The translations under genes were made by a program, and so were the position numbers. DNA of 64,000 nucleotides, taken from sequence record PZ357121.2; one strand, written 5' to 3'. Every line of letters begins with the position of its first letter. The first letter of the stretch is position 1. The notes beneath the pieces were generated by a model. It was given only the letters and a program-made list of their open reading frames with translations. It was not told the origin of the DNA and ran no database searches. Of this stretch, positions 10,209 to 49,117 are shown piece after piece. The stretch is from a phage.

Positions 10209-10409
10209 TCACAAGTTACGTTTAAAAATTTCTGCTACTTCAAGAAGTTCTTCTTTAGTAGCTGTATCGGTTTGTATTTTATATCGAATTTCCTTAAAGC
10301 GTTCTTTAAAGGCTTCGGCTGATTCGATATCAAAAAATCTTTGGATAAGCCGGAATTCCCGGAGCACTGCTTTATCAAAAAGTTCCAAGTCCACGTTATA
10401 TGTTCTCAT
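10209..10409 (-). CDS. hypothetical protein (66 aa; rIIA.1-like position)
   Basis: ATG ORF immediately upstream of rIIA. Confidence 0.5.
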   Translation of the reverse strand: MRTYNVDLELFDKAVLREFRLIQRFFDIESAEAFKERFKEIRYKIQTDTATKEELLEVAEIFKRNL

Positions 10410-10501: not shown

Positions 10502-11602
10502 TTACGCTGTGAAGATTTTATCCCACATCGCAACAACTGCATCTCGATTATACTTCTTCCATACTGCTTCAGCACGTTTAACTCGAGCTTCGTATGTGTC
10601 AGTGAATTCTAATACAGCTTTTGTGTAAAGCGCAACTACTTCTTTCTTAGGAGTAGAGGAATCAATTTCTACACGCACAGTATCTGGGTCGTATTCGAAT
10701 GTCGCATGAGGATAATCCTTAAAAACTAACTGGATTACAGGGACACCTTTAGAGATGGCTTCAATAGAACTATTCTCTACCGTACCTGTGTCAGGACACG
10801 TATTAATAAGTGCTTTAGCTGTTTTAAGACGTTCCATGATTTCACTGTGTGGAGCATCAATAATAACAGGATACTTAGCCGGTGGTGCCCATTTGCTTGG
10901 ACAGTATCCTGCACCATTTTCGCCTAGTGCTTTAATAGCTTCAAGAGCAACATCAGTACGACGCATTTTAGTGTCATAACGTTGTGCACTAATAATCAGA
11001 TCAGTCGCCGGGAGAACTTCTGGCTTTTCAGTCAAACAAATAACCGGATAATCTTCGGCTTCAAACAACGGATTTGCTCGCCAATAATCATAATCAATTT
11101 TGTCAGTCAGACCTGAAGTCATATAACAATATTTGCGTTCAAATTCACGGAAGGCTTTAGTAGGAGCATAACTCTTACCACCATTCTTATGAATTTGAAT
11201 AGTTTGGTCCCAAATTTGAACAATGCCACGAGATACCGGTTCAAATGGTGTTGCCATAAAATTCTTATGAACTTTAGAGAGACCTACGTCTTTAATTGCC
11301 TGAACGGTTAGTTTAGTCGGTTCCATAGTAACAACAAAATCGTATTCATGGATGCCGGCTAGTTCAACAATCTTACGAGCCATAGTATAACTCATACCTA
11401 GACTGAATTTAGTCAGATGACCAACAGGATGGTGTGTAACTTTCCAGTCACCAAACGTGTCATTATCAAAGCCGATATAATCAATATCAGCACCGATGGA
11501 CACAAGATATTTCAACACATTTAAATGTACTGCTTCAAGGCCACCTTGTACACGGTCAGGATTAAATGGGACTGCACGAGATGGGATAAACATAACTTTC
11601 AT
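10502..11602 (-). CDS. GT-B family glycosyltransferase (366 aa); candidate hmC-DNA glycosyl/arabinosyl transferase
   Basis: ATG ORF; C-terminal motif TGTVENSSIEAISKGVPVI fits GT4-type E-x-E/G-x-PV signature; lies between rIIA and 39 where RB69-type phages are reported to carry their hmC arabinosyltransferase (not verified). Confidence 0.7.
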   Translation of the reverse strand: MKVMFIPSRAVPFNPDRVQGGLEAVHLNVLKYLVSIGADIDYIGFDNDTFGDWKVTHHPVGHLTKFSLGMSYTMARKIVELAGIHEYDFVVTMEPTKLTVQAIKDVGLSKVHKNFMATPFEPVSRGIVQIWDQTIQIHKNGGKSYAPTKAFREFERKYCYMTSGLTDKIDYDYWRANPLFEAEDYPVICLTEKPEVLPATDLIISAQRYDTKMRRTDVALEAIKALGENGAGYCPSKWAPPAKYPVIIDAPHSEIMERLKTAKALINTCPDTGTVENSSIEAISKGVPVIQLVFKDYPHATFEYDPDTVRVEIDSSTPKKEVVALYTKAVLEFTDTYEARVKRAEAVWKKYNRDAVVAMWDKIFTA

Positions 11603-11628
11603 AATTAAGCCTTATTAAAATTAAAATG

Positions 11629-11646
11629 AAGCTCCCGAAGGAGCTT
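11629..11646 (-). terminator. terminator-like hairpin downstream of gene 39
   Basis: AAGCTCC-CGAA-GGAGCTT hairpin followed on - strand by CATTTTAATTTT. Confidence 0.45.
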
Positions 11647-13462
11647 AGGACATCCATTCTTTACGAAGTTCTGAATCATCACCCAACAACATTTCAAAGA
11701 GTTCTTTCCAATTTTCAGGAAGTTTAACTACGTCGTACACAGGATTCTGAATCATTTCACGATATTCTGACTTTTCAAGGGAGCCCAATCCCTTGATGTA
11801 TCGAATACTATGCTTAGGCAGTGTATCTTTAACTTCTTCATACTCAGCTACAGTATAAAACCATTTTTGAGTTTTGCCAATTTGTGCAATAATTACAGGC
11901 GTTTTAACAAAGCGAATACGTCCTTGTTCGAACAATTCGGGCCAATTACTAAAGAAAGCAAGCAAAGCCGGATAAATACTTCCAAGACCATCATGATCGG
12001 CATCGGTCATAATTGCAATATTACGATAGTTCGTATTCTCTGCCTTTTCACCAAGAATAAGACCTGTGATAGCACAGATATCAAAGAGCTCTTTGTTCTT
12101 CATCATATCAGCATATGACATACCCCAGCTATTCATCACCTTACCACGTAATGGGAATCCACCGTGTAGTTCACGGTCACGAACATCAATGAGATAACCA
12201 ATTGCCGAATCACCTTCTGTTAAAAACAATGTCGTATCTGCATCTTTACCACATTGGTTAGCTTTAATATGCTTATGAACCTTAGCTTTAGTTGCCTTTT
12301 TAGCTGCTTTAGTTTCTGCAGCCTTTTCTGCTGCCAATTTACGAGCTAATGCTGCTTCAACAATAGGCATAATCAAGGCTTCGTTTTTAAGAAGTGCCTG
12401 AGCAATTTTCTTAGCATCTAATTGGATATGATTACGAATATCGCCATACGTTGACGTTAAACGTTCTTTAGTCTGAGAATCAAAACGCATGTTGCTCATG
12501 TCTCTAATAAACATCAACATTGTGAGACATTCTTTAACACGAGCTTTAGTGACTTCAATACCCTTATATTTCTTTTTAATGCCGGGCAAAAGATGTTCGC
12601 AGATATCATCCATTACACATTCAACATGATGACCACCATTTTTAGTATGGATGTTATTCACATAAGTTAAATGACGGAAGCCATCTGGTGATGTTGTGAA
12701 TGCTATAGAGACTTTATCATTTTCTTGAATGATGTTATCTTCGCCAAATTGTTTAGCAAATCGTTTAAAATTACCATCAACCTTTTTACCATTAAATGTG
12801 AACTTGATATCAGGATAAACGACTGCCAATGTTTGAAGACGGTCTAAAGTAATATCTAAATAAATTTGAGATAAATTATGCTCTTCAAATGAAGAGAAAT
12901 CAGGAGTGAAGATTACTTTAGTGCCTTTACCTTTAGATTTCTTAGAAGACCACGATTTGTTTTCCATTCCGTTTGAACAGTTAACAGTGATTTCATTTTC
13001 GCCATCTGACGTTATGCCTGTAAACAACGTAGAGAAGATATTAGTTAAACTACTCCCGACGCCGTTCATACCACCAGTCTTGCGTTCAGAGTCATCACCA
13101 AAGTTACCGCCGGCCTTTGGAATAGTCCAGGCTGCTACAGGCCCAGGAATTTGTTCACCTGTTTGGTCGGTAACTAAACCTTGAGGAATACCACGTCCGT
13201 TATCTTCCACCGAAACTTGATTATTTTTAATTTGCACATCAATTTTATTTGCAAACTTAAATGATGTACGAATAGCTTCATCAACCGAGTTGTCAATAAT
13301 CTCATCGATTAATTTAACCAGACCAGGAACATATTCAACTTGTTGATATTTACCAAACAAAAAACGCTCGTGGGCTTCTTTGGCCGAAGAACCAATATAC
13401 ATGCCACTACGTTTCTTAATATGTTCTACATCTGACAATACCTTAATTTCATTTTTAATCAT
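11645..13462 (-). CDS. 39: DNA topoisomerase II large (ATPase) subunit, fused gp39/gp60 type (605 aa)
   Basis: ATG ORF; GyrB-like ATPase motifs; 605 aa continuous, so no split gene 60 or bypass element as in T4. Confidence 0.9.
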   Translation of the reverse strand: MIKNEIKVLSDVEHIKKRSGMYIGSSAKEAHERFLFGKYQQVEYVPGLVKLIDEIIDNSVDEAIRTSFKFANKIDVQIKNNQVSVEDNGRGIPQGLVTDQTGEQIPGPVAAWTIPKAGGNFGDDSERKTGGMNGVGSSLTNIFSTLFTGITSDGENEITVNCSNGMENKSWSSKKSKGKGTKVIFTPDFSSFEEHNLSQIYLDITLDRLQTLAVVYPDIKFTFNGKKVDGNFKRFAKQFGEDNIIQENDKVSIAFTTSPDGFRHLTYVNNIHTKNGGHHVECVMDDICEHLLPGIKKKYKGIEVTKARVKECLTMLMFIRDMSNMRFDSQTKERLTSTYGDIRNHIQLDAKKIAQALLKNEALIMPIVEAALARKLAAEKAAETKAAKKATKAKVHKHIKANQCGKDADTTLFLTEGDSAIGYLIDVRDRELHGGFPLRGKVMNSWGMSYADMMKNKELFDICAITGLILGEKAENTNYRNIAIMTDADHDGLGSIYPALLAFFSNWPELFEQGRIRFVKTPVIIAQIGKTQKWFYTVAEYEEVKDTLPKHSIRYIKGLGSLEKSEYREMIQNPVYDVVKLPENWKELFEMLLGDDSELRKEWMS

Positions 13463-30820: not shown

Positions 30821-31369
30821 TTAACGAGCCCATTTGATAATTTCTGTAATCAAATTATTACGTTCGCTTGCATTAAATCCTATAACTTTGTTAGCACCAT
30901 CATGATTAAGTAATTGATACGTTTGGATTTCGTTATGAATTGCAAACTCTTCAAAATACGAAATGACTGTATTAAACCTGAATGAAGACAAAGTAATAAG
31001 GTCGTCTTCAAAACTTTCAGTCATTTCGTTACGTGTTAAAATAATTGTGAACACATCATGGTTTTGGCAAAGACGAACATAATCCTGTTCATAAACGTCA
31101 AGAACCGAGTCCGCATCTTGTCGAATACGTCCATAAACCCAGTTACTAATATATCCACGGTCTAACAGATAAATCTTAGTAGGGTCTAAATAATTCAACA
31201 TCGTTTCGAAACAGCCAACTTCATTTCGAGACTTAACATCGAAACGTCCATCAACTGTTCGTTTAGGGAAATCAATCTTTACATATCTTTCACTAATTTC
31301 CATTATGTCATTAATGAAAGTTGTTTTACCAGCATTATCCGGGCCATCTACTAAAATAATTTTAGCCAT
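30821..31369 (-). CDS. P-loop nucleotide kinase, thymidylate-kinase-like (182 aa)
   Basis: ATG ORF; Walker A VDGPDNAGKTT and LLDRGY (DRY-type) motif typical of Tmk-like dNMP kinases. Confidence 0.65.
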   Translation of the reverse strand: MAKIILVDGPDNAGKTTFINDIMEISERYVKIDFPKRTVDGRFDVKSRNEVGCFETMLNYLDPTKIYLLDRGYISNWVYGRIRQDADSVLDVYEQDYVRLCQNHDVFTIILTRNEMTESFEDDLITLSSFRFNTVISYFEEFAIHNEIQTYQLLNHDGANKVIGFNASERNNLITEIIKWAR

Positions 31370-31370
31370 T

Positions 31371-32270
31371 TTATTCCTCGATTACGACATCTTCATATTT
31401 AGGTATATTATACGGCGAAGAAATTAAAGCATTAAAGTAGATGAACTCGCCAAGACCTGGATGGAATACTTCTTCAGGATTTTCGAAGTATTGAATCTTC
31501 GGACGTCCTTTAAGAATTTGATAGTACTCAGTTTTAGTTGGTTTAAAAATTCGAATCAGCGCTTCTTCAGGATACTTATTTCTGTCGAAGCTATTATTTG
31601 GATCGGTTATATAAAGCGGTTGACCTAATTGAATTGCACATTCAACCACTTGTTCAAAACGATAGCACGGGTCACTAATTCGAAATGGATGAAAAATACC
31701 ATCTAGATGAATAGGAGCCAAATCACCTACAAGACGCTGCATGATGGAAGGACGTATAACTTTCTGCGTTACGATAATCTTATTACCATCTGCACCTGCG
31801 TTAACCAGCACTTCTTTTTGACGTTCATTCAACACAGTAGTTTGAAGTGAACGATTAACAGACAACATGTCGGTTTTTAAGAATTCGTCAATATAAAAAC
31901 GTGGTTTATTAGGGTCTGCAGTGATATTGAAATTGAATTCTACGTCAAAATTGCCGTCATATCCAGTGATATCTGTGATTAGAAAATCACAATCATAATA
32001 ATCAATTAATGAATCAACCACAAATTCATTTTCAGACCAGAAATATTTACGAGTGTTATATGCGTTATCTTTATACCATAATGGAACAAACTTAAATTCT
32101 GGGAAAAGACGTTCGCATTCTTTAATATCAGATGCATTACGTGGATATGTAATCACATCACCCGGATTAGCACGGTGCAAATGAAGTTGGAAGTTGCCAT
32201 CCTTAAGGATAGCATACTGTCCAGTTTCATAAGACCGCATACTCAAGATAGGTACGCGGAAAATAGCCAT
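31371..32270 (-). CDS. hypothetical protein (299 aa) at the beta-gt locus
   Basis: ATG ORF between uvsX and gene 42 where T4 has beta-glucosyltransferase; no motif recognised. Confidence 0.6.
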   Translation of the reverse strand: MAIFRVPILSMRSYETGQYAILKDGNFQLHLHRANPGDVITYPRNASDIKECERLFPEFKFVPLWYKDNAYNTRKYFWSENEFVVDSLIDYYDCDFLITDITGYDGNFDVEFNFNITADPNKPRFYIDEFLKTDMLSVNRSLQTTVLNERQKEVLVNAGADGNKIIVTQKVIRPSIMQRLVGDLAPIHLDGIFHPFRISDPCYRFEQVVECAIQLGQPLYITDPNNSFDRNKYPEEALIRIFKPTKTEYYQILKGRPKIQYFENPEEVFHPGLGEFIYFNALISSPYNIPKYEDVVIEE

Positions 32271-32986
32271 TAGTCAAGGAATCCTTTAACATAATCAAAA
32301 TCACGGTCAAACACATGGGCACTTACCATGGTATGAGTATAATCACCAACTTCTACACCACATTCTTTAGCGATATAATGAAGTAATTTTCCTTGGAGAT
32401 AAAAATCCAACTGCATAACAACAGCACAGTTCTGAGAACGCATATGACAGTGGGTATAAAGCTTACCATCACGAATATAATAAGTCACTGAGTCAGTACA
32501 TGGATATTCAAGTGTTTCGTCCGAATCAAGCAAAGCCTGATCTGAACTTTCAAGAATTTGAAACACAACTCTTCGTGAATTAGGTTTCTCTTTAAGTTCT
32601 TTGAGAAGAGCTGGTAACTGGGCCGCAATTCGTGGACCATAGAAAGTGTTGAAGTTTGCAGGCAAAGCGTCTGATTTAGGTTTAGAAATAAATTTAGCAA
32701 CGTTAGGATATGCCTTAAATGCTTCTTCTGCGTCGGTACCACCAGAAATCATAAATTTCCAGAAGTCTTCGGCATATTCATAAGAGATGCGGTTAATACG
32801 TGGGTCGGTCATTTTGAATGATGATGGAGTGTCAACAACTACTGTCATAGACCCAATTTCATTACAACGTCCAATACGAGAATCAGTTACGAATTCCGGG
32901 TTTTCTAAAATTTCACGATTGACTGCTTTAAATGCGGATTGAAAATCTGCGGCTTTGATATATTTCATTGTGTTATGTTTTCCCAT
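32270..32986 (-). CDS. 42: deoxypyrimidylate hydroxymethylase, gp42-like (238 aa)
   Basis: ATG ORF with GAGGT SD; catalytic-site region EYPCTDSVTYYIRDGKLYTHCHMRSQN resembles the CT(N/D)xVQYxIRD...MRSND core of T4 dCMP hydroxymethylase; divergent elsewhere. Confidence 0.7.
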   Translation of the reverse strand: MGKHNTMKYIKAADFQSAFKAVNREILENPEFVTDSRIGRCNEIGSMTVVVDTPSSFKMTDPRINRISYEYAEDFWKFMISGGTDAEEAFKAYPNVAKFISKPKSDALPANFNTFYGPRIAAQLPALLKELKEKPNSRRVVFQILESSDQALLDSDETLEYPCTDSVTYYIRDGKLYTHCHMRSQNCAVVMQLDFYLQGKLLHYIAKECGVEVGDYTHTMVSAHVFDRDFDYVKGFLD

Positions 32987-33091
32987 GTTTACCTCAATAC
33001 AGTTATTATATACTCAATTCATAAAGCTTATTTGAATTTCTTAGCGATGTTGATATAACGTAAAGCTTCAGCATCGATACTTCCAAGAACA

Positions 33092-33265
33092 CTATGAAGA
33101 AATGCATCAGCGTAGTATTCTAGTTGAACAGGTTTTAATCACTTTAGCCGCTTTAGTTTCAAACAGGCCCTTATGGGCCTTTTTAAGAATTTGTTCGTTG
33201 CTGTTAATTTTCGTAGTCAAAATCTCTTCGTTAAGTTGGTGGTTAAAAGTTTTTCTAGAAATCAT
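33092..33265 (-). CDS. hypothetical protein (57 aa)
   Basis: ORF below cutoff; ATG overlaps upstream TGA (ATGA coupling). Confidence 0.4.
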
Positions 33266-34422
33266 TCTGGGTACCTCAAAGCGTCGTCAGAGTTAGTTAT
33301 ATCAATAATAGATATAGAATTTTCTGATAACCCATTTTTAGATAACTGACGTTTATAATATCTTTCACAATATGTACACGTCGTCCCGCAGATTTCATTA
33401 GCACAATCGAAATCTGGATGTTTGAACCACCTTTTTTCTAAAAAGCCATCTAACAAAGAGGTTTCAATATTTACCGTATGTGAAAACTCAGTTTCGTTTT
33501 CAAGAGTGAAAATGGTCTCTAAAGGCTTCCACAATTCCAACAAATTACCTTCAAATTTTTCAGAAGCATAAGCTTCAAGAACTTTCAAAATGTAGTCTGT
33601 GCTACCTGTACGTCCCGAAACTTTAAATTGGGTGATACCAATATCGTTATAAAGTTTCAAATCTTGTGGACGAACAAAACGAGTTCTCAACCAGTTAAAT
33701 GGGTCTGTATCACGAGCTTTAATACAGTGCTGCATTGGATATCCATTTAAGGATTTGGCATCATCTACTGTAACATCGGTGCTATGGAAAATATAGCAAG
33801 AGTCACGATAACTACAATGTGTTGTATACCCTTTACCAGCATTAGAACAGAACTCATTTACAAGAACTTCAAATATTATATTGTTCTTATTGCAAAACTC
33901 TGCTGCACGCTTCAGGAAAGAAACTGAACGGTTCTTATGAATTCCACAGCAGACCTTTTTGATATTATATTGGTCATGCAAGTATTTGATTTGAGTTACA
34001 GCATCGACATGTAGAATTGTTGAAACTTCAATCTCAATGTCTTTATTGACTTCACGAACAATTTCCATAACAACAGGGTTAGCGATAGTAATACGCCATA
34101 CGCCTATTGACCAAAGATACTGAACATAATCCTGAATAGCTTTCTTCTTCCACTCAACTAGTTCTCTTTTTGAACCAGGATTTATCGTGTTGAGTGTATA
34201 GTTAAAGCAAATACCTAATTCGTTACAACGTTTAACGTAATCTTCTAACATCTTTTTGTCAACGTCGGGAAGCCTAAAATCAGGTCTGGCTGCTACAAAA
34301 GCCATTTCTCTTGTAGAGCCGTATACTTCGTTTATCAAGCTATTAGGATAAGTTTTATTGAGCTCTACGATTTTATCAAGAAGAGCTAAATCAAAATTCG
34401 TTCCGATTTTAAAGGTATTCAT
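33262..34422 (-). CDS. hypothetical protein (386 aa) with C-terminal Cys cluster
   Basis: ATG ORF; C-terminus CANEICGTTCTYCERYY (Cx4Cx3Cx2C); no family recognised. Confidence 0.65.
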   Translation of the reverse strand: MNTFKIGTNFDLALLDKIVELNKTYPNSLINEVYGSTREMAFVAARPDFRLPDVDKKMLEDYVKRCNELGICFNYTLNTINPGSKRELVEWKKKAIQDYVQYLWSIGVWRITIANPVVMEIVREVNKDIEIEVSTILHVDAVTQIKYLHDQYNIKKVCCGIHKNRSVSFLKRAAEFCNKNNIIFEVLVNEFCSNAGKGYTTHCSYRDSCYIFHSTDVTVDDAKSLNGYPMQHCIKARDTDPFNWLRTRFVRPQDLKLYNDIGITQFKVSGRTGSTDYILKVLEAYASEKFEGNLLELWKPLETIFTLENETEFSHTVNIETSLLDGFLEKRWFKHPDFDCANEICGTTCTYCERYYKRQLSKNGLSENSISIIDITNSDDALRYPE

Positions 34423-34476: not shown

Positions 34477-34863
34477 TTATAGATTCGGTTTATATGATTT
34501 AAATGTTTCGAATTCGCCTTTATTCATAAGAGCTTTGAATTCGTCAGGACGCATAGCTTTGTCGTCGATAATCCAATCATATACTGGTTTATGTGTTAGC
34601 AAATTATGGTACTTCAATCCAATGTTTGCCAAGTTCTGAATCAGACTTGGGAGAATGTCAATTGCTATACGACCAGGACCGACTGACTTCATACCGCGAG
34701 CAGTGTAAAGCGTTATGGTATGCCCTGCATCATACAGGGCATTAATGGCAGACACCATTTCGACGTCTGGTTTGAAGTTCACGTAATCACGATTGTTATT
34801 CCACTCTGTTATACAATCATCGACATCAAAACAAAGATTAAGCATGTTTTCTACACGGTGCAT
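34477..34863 (-). CDS. HAD-superfamily phosphatase (128 aa)
   Basis: Motif I FDVDDCIT (DxDxT) near N-terminus; start at 34863 overlaps upstream TAA (alternative ATGs at 34878 and 34845). Confidence 0.65.
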   Translation of the reverse strand: MHRVENMLNLCFDVDDCITEWNNNRDYVNFKPDVEMVSAINALYDAGHTITLYTARGMKSVGPGRIAIDILPSLIQNLANIGLKYHNLLTHKPVYDWIIDDKAMRPDEFKALMNKGEFETFKSYKPNL

Positions 34864-36548
34864 TAGATTCGTTCCCATTGATGAGTGATATCGCCACCGA
34901 TTGGACGATAAGAAACACCAGTTTCTTTATCAGTTAGTACCCATTTACCAGGATTTTTTGTAATCAGAGTAGCCGTTACAGGTTCTGCTACATCATAACT
35001 AATAGTGCCGTCCTGAAGTACACGGCCCATGTTACGTAATTGCTTAGTCAGAAGTTCCATACCTTTATAATATGCGGCTACCGCTTTAAGTGGATTATTC
35101 TTGAAATAACCACCTAATGCAATCCAGATAATTGCCACTGCCAAATGATGATACTCGTTAAACGAACTCATCTTTCCATATTTGTAAACTAACGGATTGA
35201 TGTTAATAGTCACATTACAAGTTGTTTCATCAATAGTAAACTGTCCCCAAGTCGGATTAGCGTTGAATTCATCATAACCTGAAACAGCGTAAAGCACTTT
35301 AGCTTCATCATACAATTTTGGCCCATAAATCTTGGTTTCACCAAAATATCCACGAGGGTCGATAAACTTGACTTCACCATTATCAGTAATCATAGTATTA
35401 CTGAAGTTCGGGTCACCATGAATAACAGAGTACTGTCCCTGAGAACGGTTATGATAACGAATAAGGTGTTCTAAAGCTTGTTTCAACATTGGCTTCAGAC
35501 GCCCAATCTTAGTGTAGTTCACATGTGTGATTTTACCAAATGAATCAATCAATGGTTGAATACTTTCACAACGATCAATAACTTTAGTATAGAATTCTTT
35601 AGTGAAATCACGACGAACAGTTTCAGGACTTACAAAATAAGTGTCTGTGCTGAATTTCAGTGCATCTAAAATTGCATCAACAATTTGTGGACGAGCAAGA
35701 CTTGATTTGGATTTAATATATTCAAATGCCGGCTTACCTTTAATGCGTTCCATTTCAAAGTTATTTTCATTAACAGAAACTAACTGAGGAACTGAATCTG
35801 ATTTCACTTTAAGATACCATGAAATCTCATCTTTCTGAAGAGCTCGGCCCTGTTCGGTTAATGCGAATTTAGTTACAGTTTCTTCACCAATTTCAACTGC
35901 ATTAAAACTACGATTAAGTTCACGAACTTCATGAGCTTTTTCAAGTTTAGGCATATCACCTAAATCAATTAGATTCATAAGCTCTGATTTATTGAATGCG
36001 CTGCCGTAAAGGAATTCTACGAAATCACGTCCTTTGCAGTATTCATGAATTTCCTCATCAGTAGAACCCATATAGAATTCCCAGTCTTTGAACTGATAAA
36101 TTCCTACAACATTACCACCTGTTGAACCTACATTAGTGATATTTTCACCGTCGAAATTATATCGACATTCGTCACCCTTAACATAGATTGCGTTAACATT
36201 CCAAGACCACGAACCAAAATCAGGAATAATATCACACCAGTTAACAATTACATTATGGCCGTCTAAATCTTTGTGCAATTTAGCAAGAGCATAAGCAGAA
36301 CCATACGCTTCATCAACTGTACGAATAGTCACATTGAACCCTTCTTGCTCACAATAAGCTCGAACAGTTTCAGCAAATTTTGAATGAACTACTACAATAA
36401 TTTCATCTGCGCCAAGGTCAGAATAAATTGTATACAAATTGCTCAGAATAGTGTCTTGTTTATAGTTAACAAGCACCTTAGGAATATGATGCGTTATTGG
36501 ATACAAACGAGTTGCCAGTCCAGCACCAAGAATAACAGCTTTTTTCAT
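34863..36548 (-). CDS. bifunctional sugar-1-phosphate nucleotidyltransferase / sugar kinase (561 aa)
   Basis: N-terminus MKKAVILGAGLATRL is the nucleotidyltransferase G-x-G-x-R signature; C-terminal IHGDPNFSNTMIT is an APH/choline-kinase-type catalytic loop. Confidence 0.75.
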   Translation of the reverse strand: MKKAVILGAGLATRLYPITHHIPKVLVNYKQDTILSNLYTIYSDLGADEIIVVVHSKFAETVRAYCEQEGFNVTIRTVDEAYGSAYALAKLHKDLDGHNVIVNWCDIIPDFGSWSWNVNAIYVKGDECRYNFDGENITNVGSTGGNVVGIYQFKDWEFYMGSTDEEIHEYCKGRDFVEFLYGSAFNKSELMNLIDLGDMPKLEKAHEVRELNRSFNAVEIGEETVTKFALTEQGRALQKDEISWYLKVKSDSVPQLVSVNENNFEMERIKGKPAFEYIKSKSSLARPQIVDAILDALKFSTDTYFVSPETVRRDFTKEFYTKVIDRCESIQPLIDSFGKITHVNYTKIGRLKPMLKQALEHLIRYHNRSQGQYSVIHGDPNFSNTMITDNGEVKFIDPRGYFGETKIYGPKLYDEAKVLYAVSGYDEFNANPTWGQFTIDETTCNVTININPLVYKYGKMSSFNEYHHLAVAIIWIALGGYFKNNPLKAVAAYYKGMELLTKQLRNMGRVLQDGTISYDVAEPVTATLITKNPGKWVLTDKETGVSYRPIGGDITHQWERI

Positions 36549-36589: not shown

Positions 36590-36733
36590 CTAGTTAAAGC
36601 ATTCATACTTTGCTTGTAGTCCAATCATAATCCATCCGATTATAAGAGTCGGAATCATTACTGGAGCCGTTAAGCTCCAGTAGATAGTCATGACAAGCAT
36701 CAATAGTAAAAGTCCTATTGTTATTGCTTTCAT
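36590..36733 (-). CDS. small membrane peptide (47 aa, 2 TM)
   Basis: ORF below cutoff; ATG overlaps SIS gene TGA (ATGA coupling); hydrophobic. Confidence 0.45.
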   Translation of the reverse strand: MKAITIGLLLLMLVMTIYWSLTAPVMIPTLIIGWIMIGLQAKYECFN

Positions 36734-37365
36734 TGTTCGCCTCGTAACATGGCACCTAGTGCACCACCAGGGTGGAACTTAAGGAAGTCATTAGAGGTAA
36801 ATCCACGTTCAGACGAAAGGTTGATAGCAAACGTATCGATAAGCGCTAACAACAATGTAGTGGACATGGTCGGAGCCAGAGAATTCTCATCAACCTCTAC
36901 TGCGATGCCTGTACAGAACGTATAATCAAAAAGAGCTTCGTATTCTTGTGGAATGTCCGGGTTACAATGCAACAGAATCTGTTTGACGTTCGGACGAATC
37001 ATTTTAAGATGCTTAGCCACGCCTATCATTTCTTCAGTTTTACCAGAACGACTAATATGAATCAACACATCATTAGGCGCAATGAATCCTGCATCACCGT
37101 GAGAATAATGCCCAGTGTTCAAGTACATACTCGGGATACCAAGTGAAGCAAATGTCTCAGAAGCTTTAGTTGCAATATTAGCATTCTTACCAACACCTGT
37201 AATAATTACTCGGCTTTCATAATTACTAAGTCCTGGGCGTCGAAGAGTTTCTAGAATAGCATTATAACGAGCAGGGTTTTGACTAATTACTTTGGCCATA
37301 GCGGCCAAAGAAGAAGCTTGTTTTATGATTGCGTCAATAGCGATAGTAATAGGAGTAGTTTTCAT
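36730..37365 (-). CDS. SIS-domain sugar-phosphate isomerase (211 aa)
   Basis: ATG ORF; SIS signatures GVGKNANIA and HISRSGKTEEM as in GmhA/KdsD-type isomerases. Confidence 0.75.
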   Translation of the reverse strand: MKTTPITIAIDAIIKQASSLAAMAKVISQNPARYNAILETLRRPGLSNYESRVIITGVGKNANIATKASETFASLGIPSMYLNTGHYSHGDAGFIAPNDVLIHISRSGKTEEMIGVAKHLKMIRPNVKQILLHCNPDIPQEYEALFDYTFCTGIAVEVDENSLAPTMSTTLLLALIDTFAINLSSERGFTSNDFLKFHPGGALGAMLRGEQ

Positions 37366-46249: not shown

Positions 46250-46484
46250 CCTCGATGCAGGCTTCAGCCATTTTCAGAAGAGAACCAGGAGTATCACCGT
46301 CCATTACATTGAAACTGAATTCCACAGCCCAGTCTGTACAGACACGAACTGCTTTAACTTCACCGTCTTCAACTCGTAATGGTTCAATCCAGTATTTCAC
46401 TGTGTTCTCGAATCCGTCGTCGTCAATAACGTCTATTTCAACTTCAAGCCCGAGCCCAGCATTGTTAAATTCATCTAAAGTCAT
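46224..46484 (-). CDS. hypothetical protein (86 aa)
   Basis: ATG ORF overlapping gene 47 stop. Confidence 0.55.
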   Translation of the reverse strand: MTLDEFNNAGLGLEVEIDVIDDDGFENTVKYWIEPLRVEDGEVKAVRVCTDWAVEFSFNVMDGDTPGSLLKMAEACIEDAYNDYED

Positions 46485-47500
46485 TGTGTTGCCTCAATAT
46501 AAAGTTCGTTGGAATATTTGACCAGCGCTTCTCTGTCTTCGTCTGAGATATCTGGAATCGCGTCAATATATTCTTTAATGATATCTTGAAGTGATTTAAT
46601 CTCGATTTCCTGGTCGTCATCAGATTCAACACTGTTATCAACTTTAGAAACCATACGAAGAGAGTGAACTACTTTTTCAAGTTCAGATTCAAACTTAGTC
46701 AAATCTGAATCAATTTCTGATACTATAACACGTACGGCTAGATTAGTATAATCAGAATAATTGATTTTGCCTTTAAACGGATAAGTGATTCGTCGATGCC
46801 ATGTTGTTTCATTAGGAATAAATTCCATACGTTCGACATCAGTGTCAAATACCCAGAATCCGCGCGGGTCGTTCTCATCACCTGCAGTAAGAGTCCATGG
46901 TGTCCCAATATATTTGACGTTAGCAGCTTCAGAGATTGTGTGGAAGTGGCCGGACCAGACTTGTTTATAGGTCTTTAAGAAATCAGGTTCAAGCCCATGA
47001 GACTTCATTCCTTTATAGAAATAAAAGCCGTTCAGTTCCCAGTGACCAACACAATATGCAGCAGAAGAAGTCTTGATGTGCTCTAAGATTTCACCTGTAT
47101 TTTCTTCACACATCCATGGAACGATATCAATCAGGCATCCGTCAAAATCTACAGTAGTTGGATGTTCGTAAATAGTAAAGTTTTCAAATTGAGTTAACAA
47201 TTCAGAAACAGTGTTAGGTGTTATTGTATTCTTAAACGCCATGTCATGGTTTCCTATCGTGACATGAACGTGAATGCCTGCTTTAGAAATCATATCAACG
47301 ATTTCACGATTGAATTCCATTGTACGATGTGTTATTGCTTTACGGACGTCAAACCAATCACCGTACTGAATCCAAGTTTTAATCCCGTGTTTCTTAGAGT
47401 ATTCAATTGCTTGTCGAATACCATCACGTTGAATATCTTGAACCCATGGGTCGTCTTGTTTGACTCCGATATGGAAGTCGCCTAAGTGCAAAATTTTCAT
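46481..47500 (-). CDS. 47: recombination nuclease subunit gp47 (Mre11/SbcD-like, 339 aa)
   Basis: ATG ORF with GAGGAA SD; calcineurin-type phosphoesterase motifs (LHLGDFH, GNHD). Confidence 0.95.
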   Translation of the reverse strand: MKILHLGDFHIGVKQDDPWVQDIQRDGIRQAIEYSKKHGIKTWIQYGDWFDVRKAITHRTMEFNREIVDMISKAGIHVHVTIGNHDMAFKNTITPNTVSELLTQFENFTIYEHPTTVDFDGCLIDIVPWMCEENTGEILEHIKTSSAAYCVGHWELNGFYFYKGMKSHGLEPDFLKTYKQVWSGHFHTISEAANVKYIGTPWTLTAGDENDPRGFWVFDTDVERMEFIPNETTWHRRITYPFKGKINYSDYTNLAVRVIVSEIDSDLTKFESELEKVVHSLRMVSKVDNSVESDDDQEIEIKSLQDIIKEYIDAIPDISDEDREALVKYSNELYIEATQ

Positions 47501-47552
47501 ATTATTTCCTCATTAGTTAATTCATTCTATCATCCGTTTATAAAGCAAAAAA

Positions 47553-47570
47553 GGAACTCCGAAGAGTTCC
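47553..47570 (-). terminator. rho-independent terminator
   Basis: GGAACTC-CGAA-GAGTTCC hairpin followed on - strand by TTTTTTGCTTT. Confidence 0.6.
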
Positions 47571-47743
47571 TATCCACATAGTACACCGTACAGAGGCTCA
47601 TTTGAACTTTTAAATCGAATGGGCTTGTACGTAATAGTTCCTTCGGCTTTAGCTTTATCATAAGACTCTTTAAAACGTCTCATTCTTTCTGCTTTGCCTT
47701 TACGGATTTTATCAAAATTTTCAGAAGTCGGGATGTTCGTCAT
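47570..47743 (-). CDS. hypothetical basic protein (57 aa)
   Basis: ORF below cutoff with GAGAGGTG SD; stop immediately precedes terminator. Confidence 0.45.
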   Translation of the reverse strand: MTNIPTSENFDKIRKGKAERMRRFKESYDKAKAEGTITYKPIRFKSSNEPLYGVLCG

Positions 47744-47782
47744 GCATAAGCACCTCTCAGAAAATGCCTAAATCGATTTCTC

Positions 47783-47989
47783 TCATCGTTTCCACCATTT
47801 CTTAACTTGAAATGAATCAACCCACACGAGTTGTTTTGGATCTGCCTTTACAATAGGCGGACAAATTTCTGTAATAGAACCGTCGTGATATTCCTTTTCG
47901 GAAATTTTAACACAAAGAGGACCACCCAATTTAACGGTGAACCCTGCGTTCAGCTTCAGACGTTTAAACTTTGTTTGAACTAGCGCCAT
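47783..47989 (-). CDS. hypothetical protein (68 aa)
   Basis: ATG at 47989 (track start is TTG); 26-nt overlap with upstream gene; weak SD. Confidence 0.3.
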   Translation of the reverse strand: MALVQTKFKRLKLNAGFTVKLGGPLCVKISEKEYHDGSITEICPPIVKADPKQLVWVDSFQVKKWWKR

Positions 47990-48287
47990 TAATGATGTCC
48001 TCAATAGCCTGACGAGTAGTAACCCACTGGATTTTAATTAACTTGTCATTATACGGTTGTCGTAGAATATCCCGAGATTTCTTAATAGCATATTCGTAAG
48101 CTTCGAAGTTGTTTTGAATTGCTGCTTCTTGAGCATGTGCATAAAGACGGTTTAGTTCAAAACGATTCTTTTTAAGAATCTTTTCGGATTTTTTACGTGC
48201 TTCAGCTTCATTTTTCTTTTGGATTTCTTGTAGCATTTTAGCTACTGCATCTTCTGCTTCTTTATTTTCAATAATCTCGGTAGTCAT
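47964..48287 (-). CDS. hypothetical protein (107 aa)
   Basis: ATG ORF, charged/helical. Confidence 0.55.
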   Translation of the reverse strand: MTTEIIENKEAEDAVAKMLQEIQKKNEAEARKKSEKILKKNRFELNRLYAHAQEAAIQNNFEAYEYAIKKSRDILRQPYNDKLIKIQWVTTRQAIEDIINGASSNKV

Positions 48288-48288
48288 A

Positions 48289-48498
48289 TTATCTCATTAA
48301 ATTAAAATAAAAACGTCCATCCTCTTCAATACAGAACTCATACTCAACTGGAGTCCCATTTATTGAAAATGACACGTCATGTGGGTTCAAAGGGTCGATG
48401 TCAAAATTAATTTTAAATTCACGACCCAACAGTTTTACCAAATAAGGGATTGCTTCGTCAAAAGGTTCTTCTAAGTAGTTAGAGATGTCAATTGTCAT
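48289..48498 (-). CDS. hypothetical protein (69 aa)
   Basis: Internal ATG chosen (11-nt overlap with gene 55); track ORF overlaps gene 55 by 95 nt. Confidence 0.45.
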
Positions 48499-49045
48499 CC
48501 TCATATAAAAAATCCAAACTAGGCGAATCGCTAACAACTTCCTTCTTTTCAGCCCCAGGAGCTTTATAAGCGGATTCTTCATAATGCGTCATTTTATCGT
48601 AGATGTCTTGAATAAACGTTTCATCTACCAACGCTACCATATCATCGTCATGACTGTCGTAGACATTATGAACGAAGTAACTATATTTCTTTGCAACTTC
48701 CTTACGTTCTTTTTTGATACGTTGGACAAAAGCATTAAAACAAGCTCGAGTTATGTATGCATGTGGGTTATTGTACTTAGTTTCGTCGAAATTATGAAGT
48801 CCCTTAATAGAGGCTTCAATCCCATCTGCAATCATCTCCTGCTTCCAAGACTGGGTATATCCTGAAAAGTTGAAACGTTTGGACAGGCCTTCGGCGATAA
48901 GCATAATTGCTAAACCGATGGTATCATTCTGACGAATAATTTTGTTTGGGTCTTTATTATTTAAGAGCTCCTTTTTCCACTCGATTATAGCGGCGAGAAG
49001 CTCTTTATTATTCACATAGTTATTTTTAGGTTTTTGTTCAGTCAT
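48488..49045 (-). CDS. 55: late sigma factor gp55 (185 aa)
   Basis: ATG at 49045 with AAGAGGT SD; ...[10 protein letters not shown]...[52 protein letters not shown]... matches recalled T4 gp55; 185 aa. Confidence 0.9.
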
Positions 49046-49117
49046 AAGTACCTCTTGGCTCAATTCATAGGTCTATTATATCATAATATTTAGAGACCTA
49101 TCTTAAAGCACGAGATA

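Follow-up and report, generated by a model that had tools for sequence, protein, structure and literature searches.

Which enzymes place the sugars on the DNA of an RB69-like phage, and in which order they act, is the question raised by an open reading frame (ORF) on the minus strand at positions 10502-11602 of sequence record PZ357121.2, a phage DNA of 64,000 nucleotides that was analysed over its full length and is called the window in the following. The ORF starts with ATG, its 366 codons fill this span exactly, and it lies, as the original prediction for this locus had placed it, between rIIA.1 (downstream) and an unsplit gene 39 (upstream) in a genome of the Mosigvirus (RB69-like) type. 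That prediction took the product for the only clear glycosyltransferase in the window and for the candidate enzyme that transfers the nucleotide-sugar of a biosynthetic island to 5-hydroxymethylcytosine (hmC) in DNA. We propose a different step: the 366-residue protein is probably a UDP-arabinofuranose (UDP-Araf)-dependent transferase that adds a second arabinose, in beta-1,3 linkage, onto arabinosyl-5-hydroxycytosine in DNA. For this proposal, our own results are the orthology and GT-B fold of the protein, its agreement with a structure that contains UDP, the phyletic distribution, the linkage of the genes and the 5-hydroxy signature of the synthase; the chemistry of the modification, UDP-Araf as the donor and the action of the Acinetobacter paralogs on arabinosylated DNA come from published papers. 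The formation of the beta-1,3 Araf-Araf bond and the action on DNA are what we infer for this enzyme.

The role of the gene was already published between 2018 and 2026, and the original prediction is a correct rediscovery with a partly outdated interpretation. Thomas et al. 2018 singled out RB69 ORF003c (366 residues) as a GT-B candidate arabinosyltransferase, using custom hidden Markov models, HHpred and Phyre2, and noted its homologs in JS09, Shf125875 and Acinetobacter phages (PMC6024577). The gene has since been proposed as the second arabinosyltransferase, with the same order of steps (PMC13326640; PMC13390438). What our analysis adds to the prediction is that there are two transferases and not one, that the predicted base is 5-hydroxycytosine and not hmC, and that the 366-residue enzyme most likely acts at the second step; it also adds an exact copy-number rule over public phage genomes, which makes the modification state predictable from sequence alone.

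The 366-residue protein and its fold

The protein is 98.9% identical to RB69 ORF003c, and a search of Protein Data Bank (PDB) sequences returned the HY126 glycosyltransferase (E 5e-249, ~98% identity), whose entries are described in the fold library as the free enzyme (9IQZ) and the enzyme with UDP (9IR0), both released 2025-07-16; 9IQZ is linked to He et al. 2026 through the shared phage name HY126 alone. RB69 ORF003c/gp3 and the HY126 enzyme are effectively the same protein as that of the window, with 98-99% identity, equal length and the same rIIA.1-gene 39 locus, and the handful of substitutions gives no sign of a functional difference. The surrounding DNA is 98-99% identical to Mosigvirus phages, such as HX01, F2 and APCEc01. 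Within the gene, HX01 differs at 12 codons synonymously and at 3 non-synonymously, and JK45 at 16 and 2; on this sequence evidence, the ORF is a real gene under purifying selection.

Database searches did not bear out the description of this protein as a clear glycosyltransferase. No Pfam family matched even at E<=10, no NCBIfam family matched, and neither the single protein nor the family profile found anything among PDB sequences beyond the HY126 ortholog. PHROG 8302 matches the protein from end to end, and its function is listed as unknown. When 10 family members were compared with Pfam, one weak match to GT4-conflict was obtained (E 0.0028) and none to Glycos_transf_1. A single-sequence homolog search returned 5 clusters at 90% identity (among 5.8 billion), a family-profile search returned 10 clusters, and 11 family representatives were found at E<=0.001 among 1.84 billion proteins; no bridge to cellular glycosyltransferase families appeared in these homolog searches. 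Judged by these matches, the family appears essentially confined to T4-like phages. Because the profile searches gave only the protein's own ortholog, the glycosyltransferase call rests on the fold and not on the sequence.

A glycosyltransferase fold, which the original prediction expected from structure prediction, is indeed found. The AlphaFold model matches 9IR0 with a TM score of 0.95 (0.95-0.96 for 9IQZ and 9IR0 together), and the protein has the two-Rossmann GT-B architecture and the UDP site. The next-best structural matches are GT4-type GT-B enzymes, and the retaining members sucrose-phosphate synthase (6KIH), BshA, PimA, MshA and WaaG are closest to it in fold. The protein differs from these enzymes in that it has no Pfam GT4 or Glycos_transf_1 match and, judged by spacing, shows E-x4-E where they have E-x7-E, and the bacterial GT4 enzymes act on small molecules or lipids and not on DNA. 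The family shows no variation at the residues around the nucleotide-binding region. The invariant positions include the N-terminal G20-G21-L22, D88, E94, R125, Q207-R208, D210, R214 and K263, together with the block N267-T-C-x-x-T-G-T-V-E276-x-x-S-x-E281-A-I-S-x-G-x-P-V, in which four residues separate E276 from E281, both invariant, as against the canonical E-x7-E of GT4, a comparison made on spacing.

The T4 enzymes are absent, as the original prediction had claimed. In T4 itself, the interval between genes 47 and 55 carries a-gt; here, gene 47 (Metallophos, 46481-47500) and the gene 55 homolog (48488-49063) enclose a slot at 47501-48487 with small ORFs of 57, 73, 107 and 97 residues and no glycosyltransferase, every ORF there being at most 107 residues long. 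Neither T4 alpha-gt nor beta-gt has a homolog in the whole window (best tblastn E 2.7 and 3.3; E>=0.09 over tblastn and blastp). The 366-residue protein shares neither sequence homology nor the gene 47-55 location with T4 alpha-glucosyltransferase (GT72; PDB 1Y6F), whose acceptor is hmC in DNA, a base not expected in the DNA of this phage, and it has neither sequence nor close structural similarity to T4 beta-glucosyltransferase (GT63). The profile search and the comparison with T4 hmC glucosyltransferases, both suggested with the prediction, yielded no glycosyltransferase family match for this protein and no T4 homology.

The names given to orthologs in public records are inconsistent, partly wrong and mostly 'hypothetical protein'. 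The HX01 ortholog (in RefSeq) and several Acinetobacter phage orthologs bear the label 'DNA alpha-glucosyltransferase', and other labels are 'ATP-binding protein', 'glycosyltransferase' and 'GDP-mannose-dependent alpha-(1-2)-phosphatidylinositol mannosyltransferase'.

The base, its sugars and two transferase families

The acceptor named in the original prediction, hmC, does not agree with the synthase encoded in the window. The T4 gene 42 slot (32270-32986, minus strand) holds a thymidylate-synthase homolog (Pfam Thymidylat_synt; 98.7% identical to RB69 gp48), which is predicted to be a 5-hydroxy-dCMP synthase and not a dCMP hydroxymethylase. In the alignment with E. coli ThyA, it has Asn at D169, where both ThyA and T4 gp42 have Asp, it has Asp at N177, and it keeps the catalytic Cys146. 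The conversion of dCMP to 5-hydroxy-dCMP by RB69 gp48 has been confirmed experimentally, and D169N is the diagnostic signature of 5-hydroxy-dCMP synthases (PMC13326640). The base in this DNA is predicted to be 5-hydroxycytosine, not hmC.

The modification of RB69 is beta-D-Araf-(1->3)-alpha-D-Araf, attached through an ether to C5 of 5-hydroxy-deoxycytidine, plus a mono-arabinosyl form (PMC13326640). Mosigvirus NP has the same two arabinosyl species at a ratio of ~1:4, and the earlier assignment as arabinosyl-hmC is called erroneous in the same work (PMC13390438). The number of sugars differs among phages: the DNA of Thanatos, with a single glycosyltransferase, is mono-arabinosylated (PMC13326640; PMC12838424), that of RB69, NP and Bas46/47 is di-arabinosylated (PMC13326640, PMC13390438, PMC12923530), and that of DLP3 carries up to three arabinoses (PMC13326640).

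Contrary to the original prediction, the window encodes a further glycosyltransferase besides the 366-residue protein. A 299-residue protein at 31371-32270 (minus strand), in the sugar-nucleotide island between uvsX and gene 43, is also a compact GT-B enzyme; it is the intact equivalent of RB69 gp46:47 (98-100% identity to gp47 plus gp46), the core transferase of the island and the proposed first, base-proximal, arabinosyltransferase. This protein, which corresponds to DLP3 gp79 and the single transferase of Thanatos, resembles the 366-residue protein in the GT-B fold, in the top structural neighbours (6kih, BshA, PimA) and in the pathway, with no detectable sequence similarity between the two (E 8.6). 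It differs in being shorter, universal in the island, located beside the 5-hydroxy-dCMP synthase and proposed to be the alpha-linking base-proximal enzyme.

We scanned 50,697 phage records with tblastn for both families. The 366-residue family occurs at 268 places in 212 records, with one copy in each of the 156 Mosigvirus records (156/156; 95-100% amino acid identity) and two copies in each of the 56 Acinetobacter-type records (56/56; ~42% identity), which include one labelled Tegunavirus. In that record (OZ038340.1, 'Tegunavirus sp. BRC001'), the scores of the two copies are identical to those of Acinetobacter phages, and the genus label is probably wrong. No member was found in the Shewanella, Serratia, Klebsiella, Yersinia, Proteus, Enterobacter or Dhakavirus-type records. 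The 299-residue family is present in 349 records that include all of these groups: it occurs in Dhakavirus (JS98, JS10, IME08) and Shewanella phage Thanatos, and also in phages of Klebsiella, Enterobacter, Edwardsiella, Yersinia, Pectobacterium, Serratia, Proteus and Acinetobacter. Wherever the listed records annotate the neighbour of the 299-residue gene, that neighbour is the thymidylate-synthase homolog. No phage group has the 366-residue family without the 299-residue family, and the copy numbers of 0, 1 and 2 of the 366-residue family match 1, 2 and 3 arabinoses per phage DNA. Because the 299-residue enzyme is present in all island phages and the 366-residue enzyme only together with di- or tri-arabinosylated DNA, the former can be regarded as the core transferase and the latter as an accessory one.

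The gene neighbourhoods fit this division. The operon of Maestro has the order SIS, NTP-transferase/kinase, phosphatase, thymidylate-synthase homolog, glycosyltransferase (315 residues, core), kinase, glycosyltransferase, glycosyltransferase, and its two paralogs show 43% and 41% identity to the 366-residue protein and 56% to each other. In one uncultured contig, a 366-family gene and a 299-family gene have 4 nt in common, the product of the latter being 48% identical to the 299-residue protein of the window; in Mosigvirus, the two genes are ~20 kb apart. DLP3 gp76/gp77 (Maestro gp077/078), which are needed for the third arabinose, belong to the same family, with 41-43% full-length identity and the same invariant motifs. 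With UDP-Araf, gp76 and gp77 jointly put a further arabinose onto RB69 DNA, and the single enzymes have no activity on 5-hydroxycytosine DNA (PMC13326640). They work in the same pathway with the same UDP-Araf donor, and act on DNA that is already arabinosylated (PMC13326640). Unlike the single Mosigvirus gene, ~20 kb from its island, the DLP3 genes are two paralogs inside the operon, are jointly required in vitro and give a tri-arabinosylated product.

The second arabinose and competing explanations

In the route that we propose, the thymidylate-synthase homolog of the island would produce 5-hydroxy-dCMP, and the SIS isomerase, the kinase/uridylyltransferase and the phosphatase would together produce UDP-D-arabinofuranose. 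5-hydroxycytosine would take the place of cytosine in DNA, and the 299-residue GT-B enzyme would link alpha-D-Araf, as the first sugar, to O5 of the base. The 366-residue GT-B enzyme would bind UDP-Araf in its C-terminal Rossmann domain and add the second Araf, beta-1,3, onto the first, converting arabinosyl- to arabinobiosyl-5-hydroxycytosine on DNA; the likely gain from the second sugar would be added protection of the DNA against host nucleases and glycosylases. A similar arrangement exists in T2 and T6, in which a second-sugar transferase, mentioned in PMC6024577 and PMC13390438, makes gentiobiosyl-hmC. Compared by description only, the logic is the same, as a second enzyme extends the sugar on a modified cytosine; the T2/T6 enzyme differs in that it uses glucose and not arabinofuranose, acts on hmC and not 5-hydroxycytosine, and is unrelated in sequence.

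On this proposal, the 366-residue gene would decide between one and two arabinoses per cytosine in an RB69-like phage. According to the papers cited in this work, the number of arabinoses affects the range of restriction enzymes, CRISPR systems and DNA glycosylases to which the phage DNA is open, and this is relevant to the choice of therapeutic phages, a point already made in the literature. According to PMC13216743, Mahler et al. 2025 found Bas46 to be viable after deletion of an arabinosyltransferase called Aat, which may or may not correspond to the 366-residue gene.

Several points weigh against a second-step role. The literature examined, which did not include He et al. 2026 (Nat Chem Biol) and Mahler et al. 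2025 (Cell Host Microbe), contains no direct assay of the RB69/HY126 enzyme. Activity in DLP3 needed two paralogs together (PMC13326640), and the lone Mosigvirus copy may behave differently. The first arabinose may be added at either the nucleotide or the DNA level (PMC13326640). Mono-arabinosylated bases persist in RB69 virion DNA, which implies that the step is incomplete or regulated. Finally, the first sugar is alpha and the second is beta, apparently from one donor, yet both enzymes most resemble retaining GT4-type folds, and a beta-linked product is unexpected for a retaining GT4-type enzyme if the donor is the alpha anomer. Considering that two retaining-looking enzymes make opposite anomeric bonds, apparently from a single UDP-Araf donor, we tentatively suggest that the 366-residue enzyme could be an inverting transferase that recognizes a sugar on DNA, whose GT4-like scaffold would carry a rearranged catalytic motif, E-x4-E. 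The 9IQZ/9IR0 structures would make such a mechanism directly testable.

The original prediction that this enzyme transfers the nucleotide-sugar of the island survives in part. The UDP crystal of a 98% identical ortholog, the paralogs in the Acinetobacter operon and the 4-nt overlap with the 299-residue family support a glycosyltransferase that uses a nucleotide-sugar and is linked both to the island and to DNA modification; it probably does not, however, place the first sugar on the base, considering that the 299-residue enzyme is present in every island phage. It is improbable, in our view, that the 366-residue protein is the primary DNA glycosyltransferase, placing the island sugar straight onto the modified cytosine (hmC or 5-hydroxycytosine) as T4 alpha-gt and beta-gt do. 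UDP binding by the near-identical ortholog and a window without T4 alpha-gt or beta-gt would fit such a role, and Thomas et al. 2018 proposed ORF003c as 'the' arabinosyltransferase (PMC6024577), but the family is missing from every island phage with one arabinose, such as Thanatos, and from all Klebsiella, Serratia, Yersinia, Proteus and Dhakavirus-type records. The second GT-B enzyme, of 299 residues, is universal and stands beside the base-modifying synthase wherever the listed records annotate it. In addition, the base is predicted to be 5-hydroxycytosine and not hmC, and single DLP3 enzymes are inactive on 5-hydroxycytosine DNA (PMC13326640).

The same DLP3 experiments can be read in another way: two glycosyltransferases were needed for any detectable activity and none was active alone (PMC13326640), so the 366-residue protein may be a partner only, in complex with the 299-residue transferase or another factor for general arabinosylation, with no second step of its own. 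The 4-nt overlap of the two genes in the uncultured contig, suggestive of coupled expression, agrees with this idea. We give it little weight, as the Mosigvirus genes are ~20 kb apart, phages lacking the 366-residue family still arabinosylate their DNA (Thanatos; PMC13326640, PMC12838424), the copy number tracks the number of sugars, and the invariant residues of the nucleotide-binding region are those expected of an active enzyme. Very unlikely is a target other than phage DNA, that is, a host envelope glycan, lipid or protein, as for PimA, BshA and WaaG. The non-phage structural neighbours do all act on small molecules, lipids or glycans, and some GenBank labels of orthologs name a phosphatidylinositol mannosyltransferase; against this, paralogs are embedded in the DNA-arabinosylation operon, the family strictly co-occurs with that operon and with multi-arabinosylated DNA, DLP3 members act on DNA in vitro (PMC13326640), and the family is essentially limited to T4-like phages, with the 11 representatives given above. 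A second-step arabinosyltransferase is the reading that we prefer.

Neighbouring genes and the sugar-nucleotide island

The downstream neighbour of the 366-residue gene, rIIA.1 (66 residues, 10209-10409, minus strand), is named from the annotation of the HX01 and JK45 orthologs. The upstream neighbour is gene 39, the large subunit of topoisomerase II, which is one unsplit ORF of 605 residues (11645-13462, minus strand). Between gene 39 and the 366-residue gene lies a short intergenic leader (11603-11646, minus strand), in which a consensus scan and direct reading identified a GC-rich stem-loop at 11629-11646, over the gene 39 stop codon, followed by TAAGG; the function of the stem-loop is putative. 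The AAGG within TAAGG, 8 nt upstream of the ATG, is a putative ribosome-binding site. Residues 1-474 of gene 39 match T4 gp39 and residues 473-605 match T4 gp60. Because gene 39 is a single 605-residue ORF, this phage has no gene 60 split of the T4 kind, no translational bypass and no mobA insertion; the position of T4 gene 60 is occupied here by the 366-residue glycosyltransferase gene. HX01 has an HNH endonuclease gene just past gene 39, which is lacking in this window.

In Shigella phage JK45, the complete 366-residue gene is followed by a 136-residue ORF (1594-2004), in which the first five codons of rIIA.1 are fused to the final 131 residues of the glycosyltransferase. The arrangement is a tandem duplication of ~500 bp at the start of a linear record, and it is possibly an assembly artefact of terminal redundancy. 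We considered the 366-residue gene as an interrupted gene or a mobile insertion and rejected this, the extra piece in JK45 being a partial tandem duplicate of the 3' end.

The island proteins in the window are 98-99% identical to RB69 gp45-gp55, and the genes all lie on the minus strand. Next to the 299-residue gene is a 182-residue P-loop nucleotide-kinase-like protein (30821-31369; RB69 gp45 equivalent). The 133-residue phosphatase-like protein (34477-34878) is the equivalent of RB69 gp51 (99% identity) and HY126 AfhF, with its role taken from PMC13326640. The 561-residue protein (34863-36548), the equivalent of RB69 gp52:53 (99% identity) and HY126 AfhE, is a bifunctional sugar-1-phosphate nucleotidyltransferase and kinase that makes UDP-arabinofuranose (Pfam NTP_transferase and a kinase-like C-terminus; NCBIfam uridylyltransferase-type; PMC13326640). 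The AfhE/AfhF sugar-nucleotide route of HY126 is the work of He et al., as summarised in PMC13326640. A 211-residue SIS-domain arabinose-5-phosphate isomerase (36730-37365) is the RB69 gp55 equivalent. The RB69 reference record splits both the 299-residue gene (ORF046c/ORF047c) and the 561-residue gene (ORF052c/053c), which are intact here; the splits have been explained as sequencing error (PMC13326640), and the intact ORFs of the window agree with that explanation.

The island also encodes a 386-residue Peptidase_U32-family protein (33262-34422, minus strand; RB69 gp50 equivalent), and a small ORF (33028-33265, minus strand) lies between its gene and that of the synthase homolog. In Klebsiella phage KLB31, this slot is taken by a genuine chorismate mutase (Pfam CM_2, 38.5 bits). 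The small ORF has 79 residues in RB69 (ORF049c, no Pfam match) and 52 residues here through a 2-nt deletion relative to RB69; the shortened form is either a pseudogene or the result of a sequencing error. The U32 protein is at least 82% identical across phages of Escherichia, Klebsiella, Proteus, Providencia, Edwardsiella, Serratia and Shewanella (222 records), far better conserved than either glycosyltransferase. It is missing from ~40 Escherichia records and from every phage of Acinetobacter, a strict aerobe, in which the other island genes occur. In the literature, the island U32 protein is labelled only as a 'sugar or heterocycle reductase' (PMC13326640), and cellular U32 proteins are O2-independent, prephenate-using hydroxylases, such as RlhA (5-hydroxycytidine in 23S rRNA), TrhP and UbiU/V (PMC5727448, PMC6599085, PMC10990095). 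By analogy with these enzymes, the phage U32 protein could provide an anaerobic route to 5-hydroxycytosine, backing up the O2- and flavin-dependent synthase.

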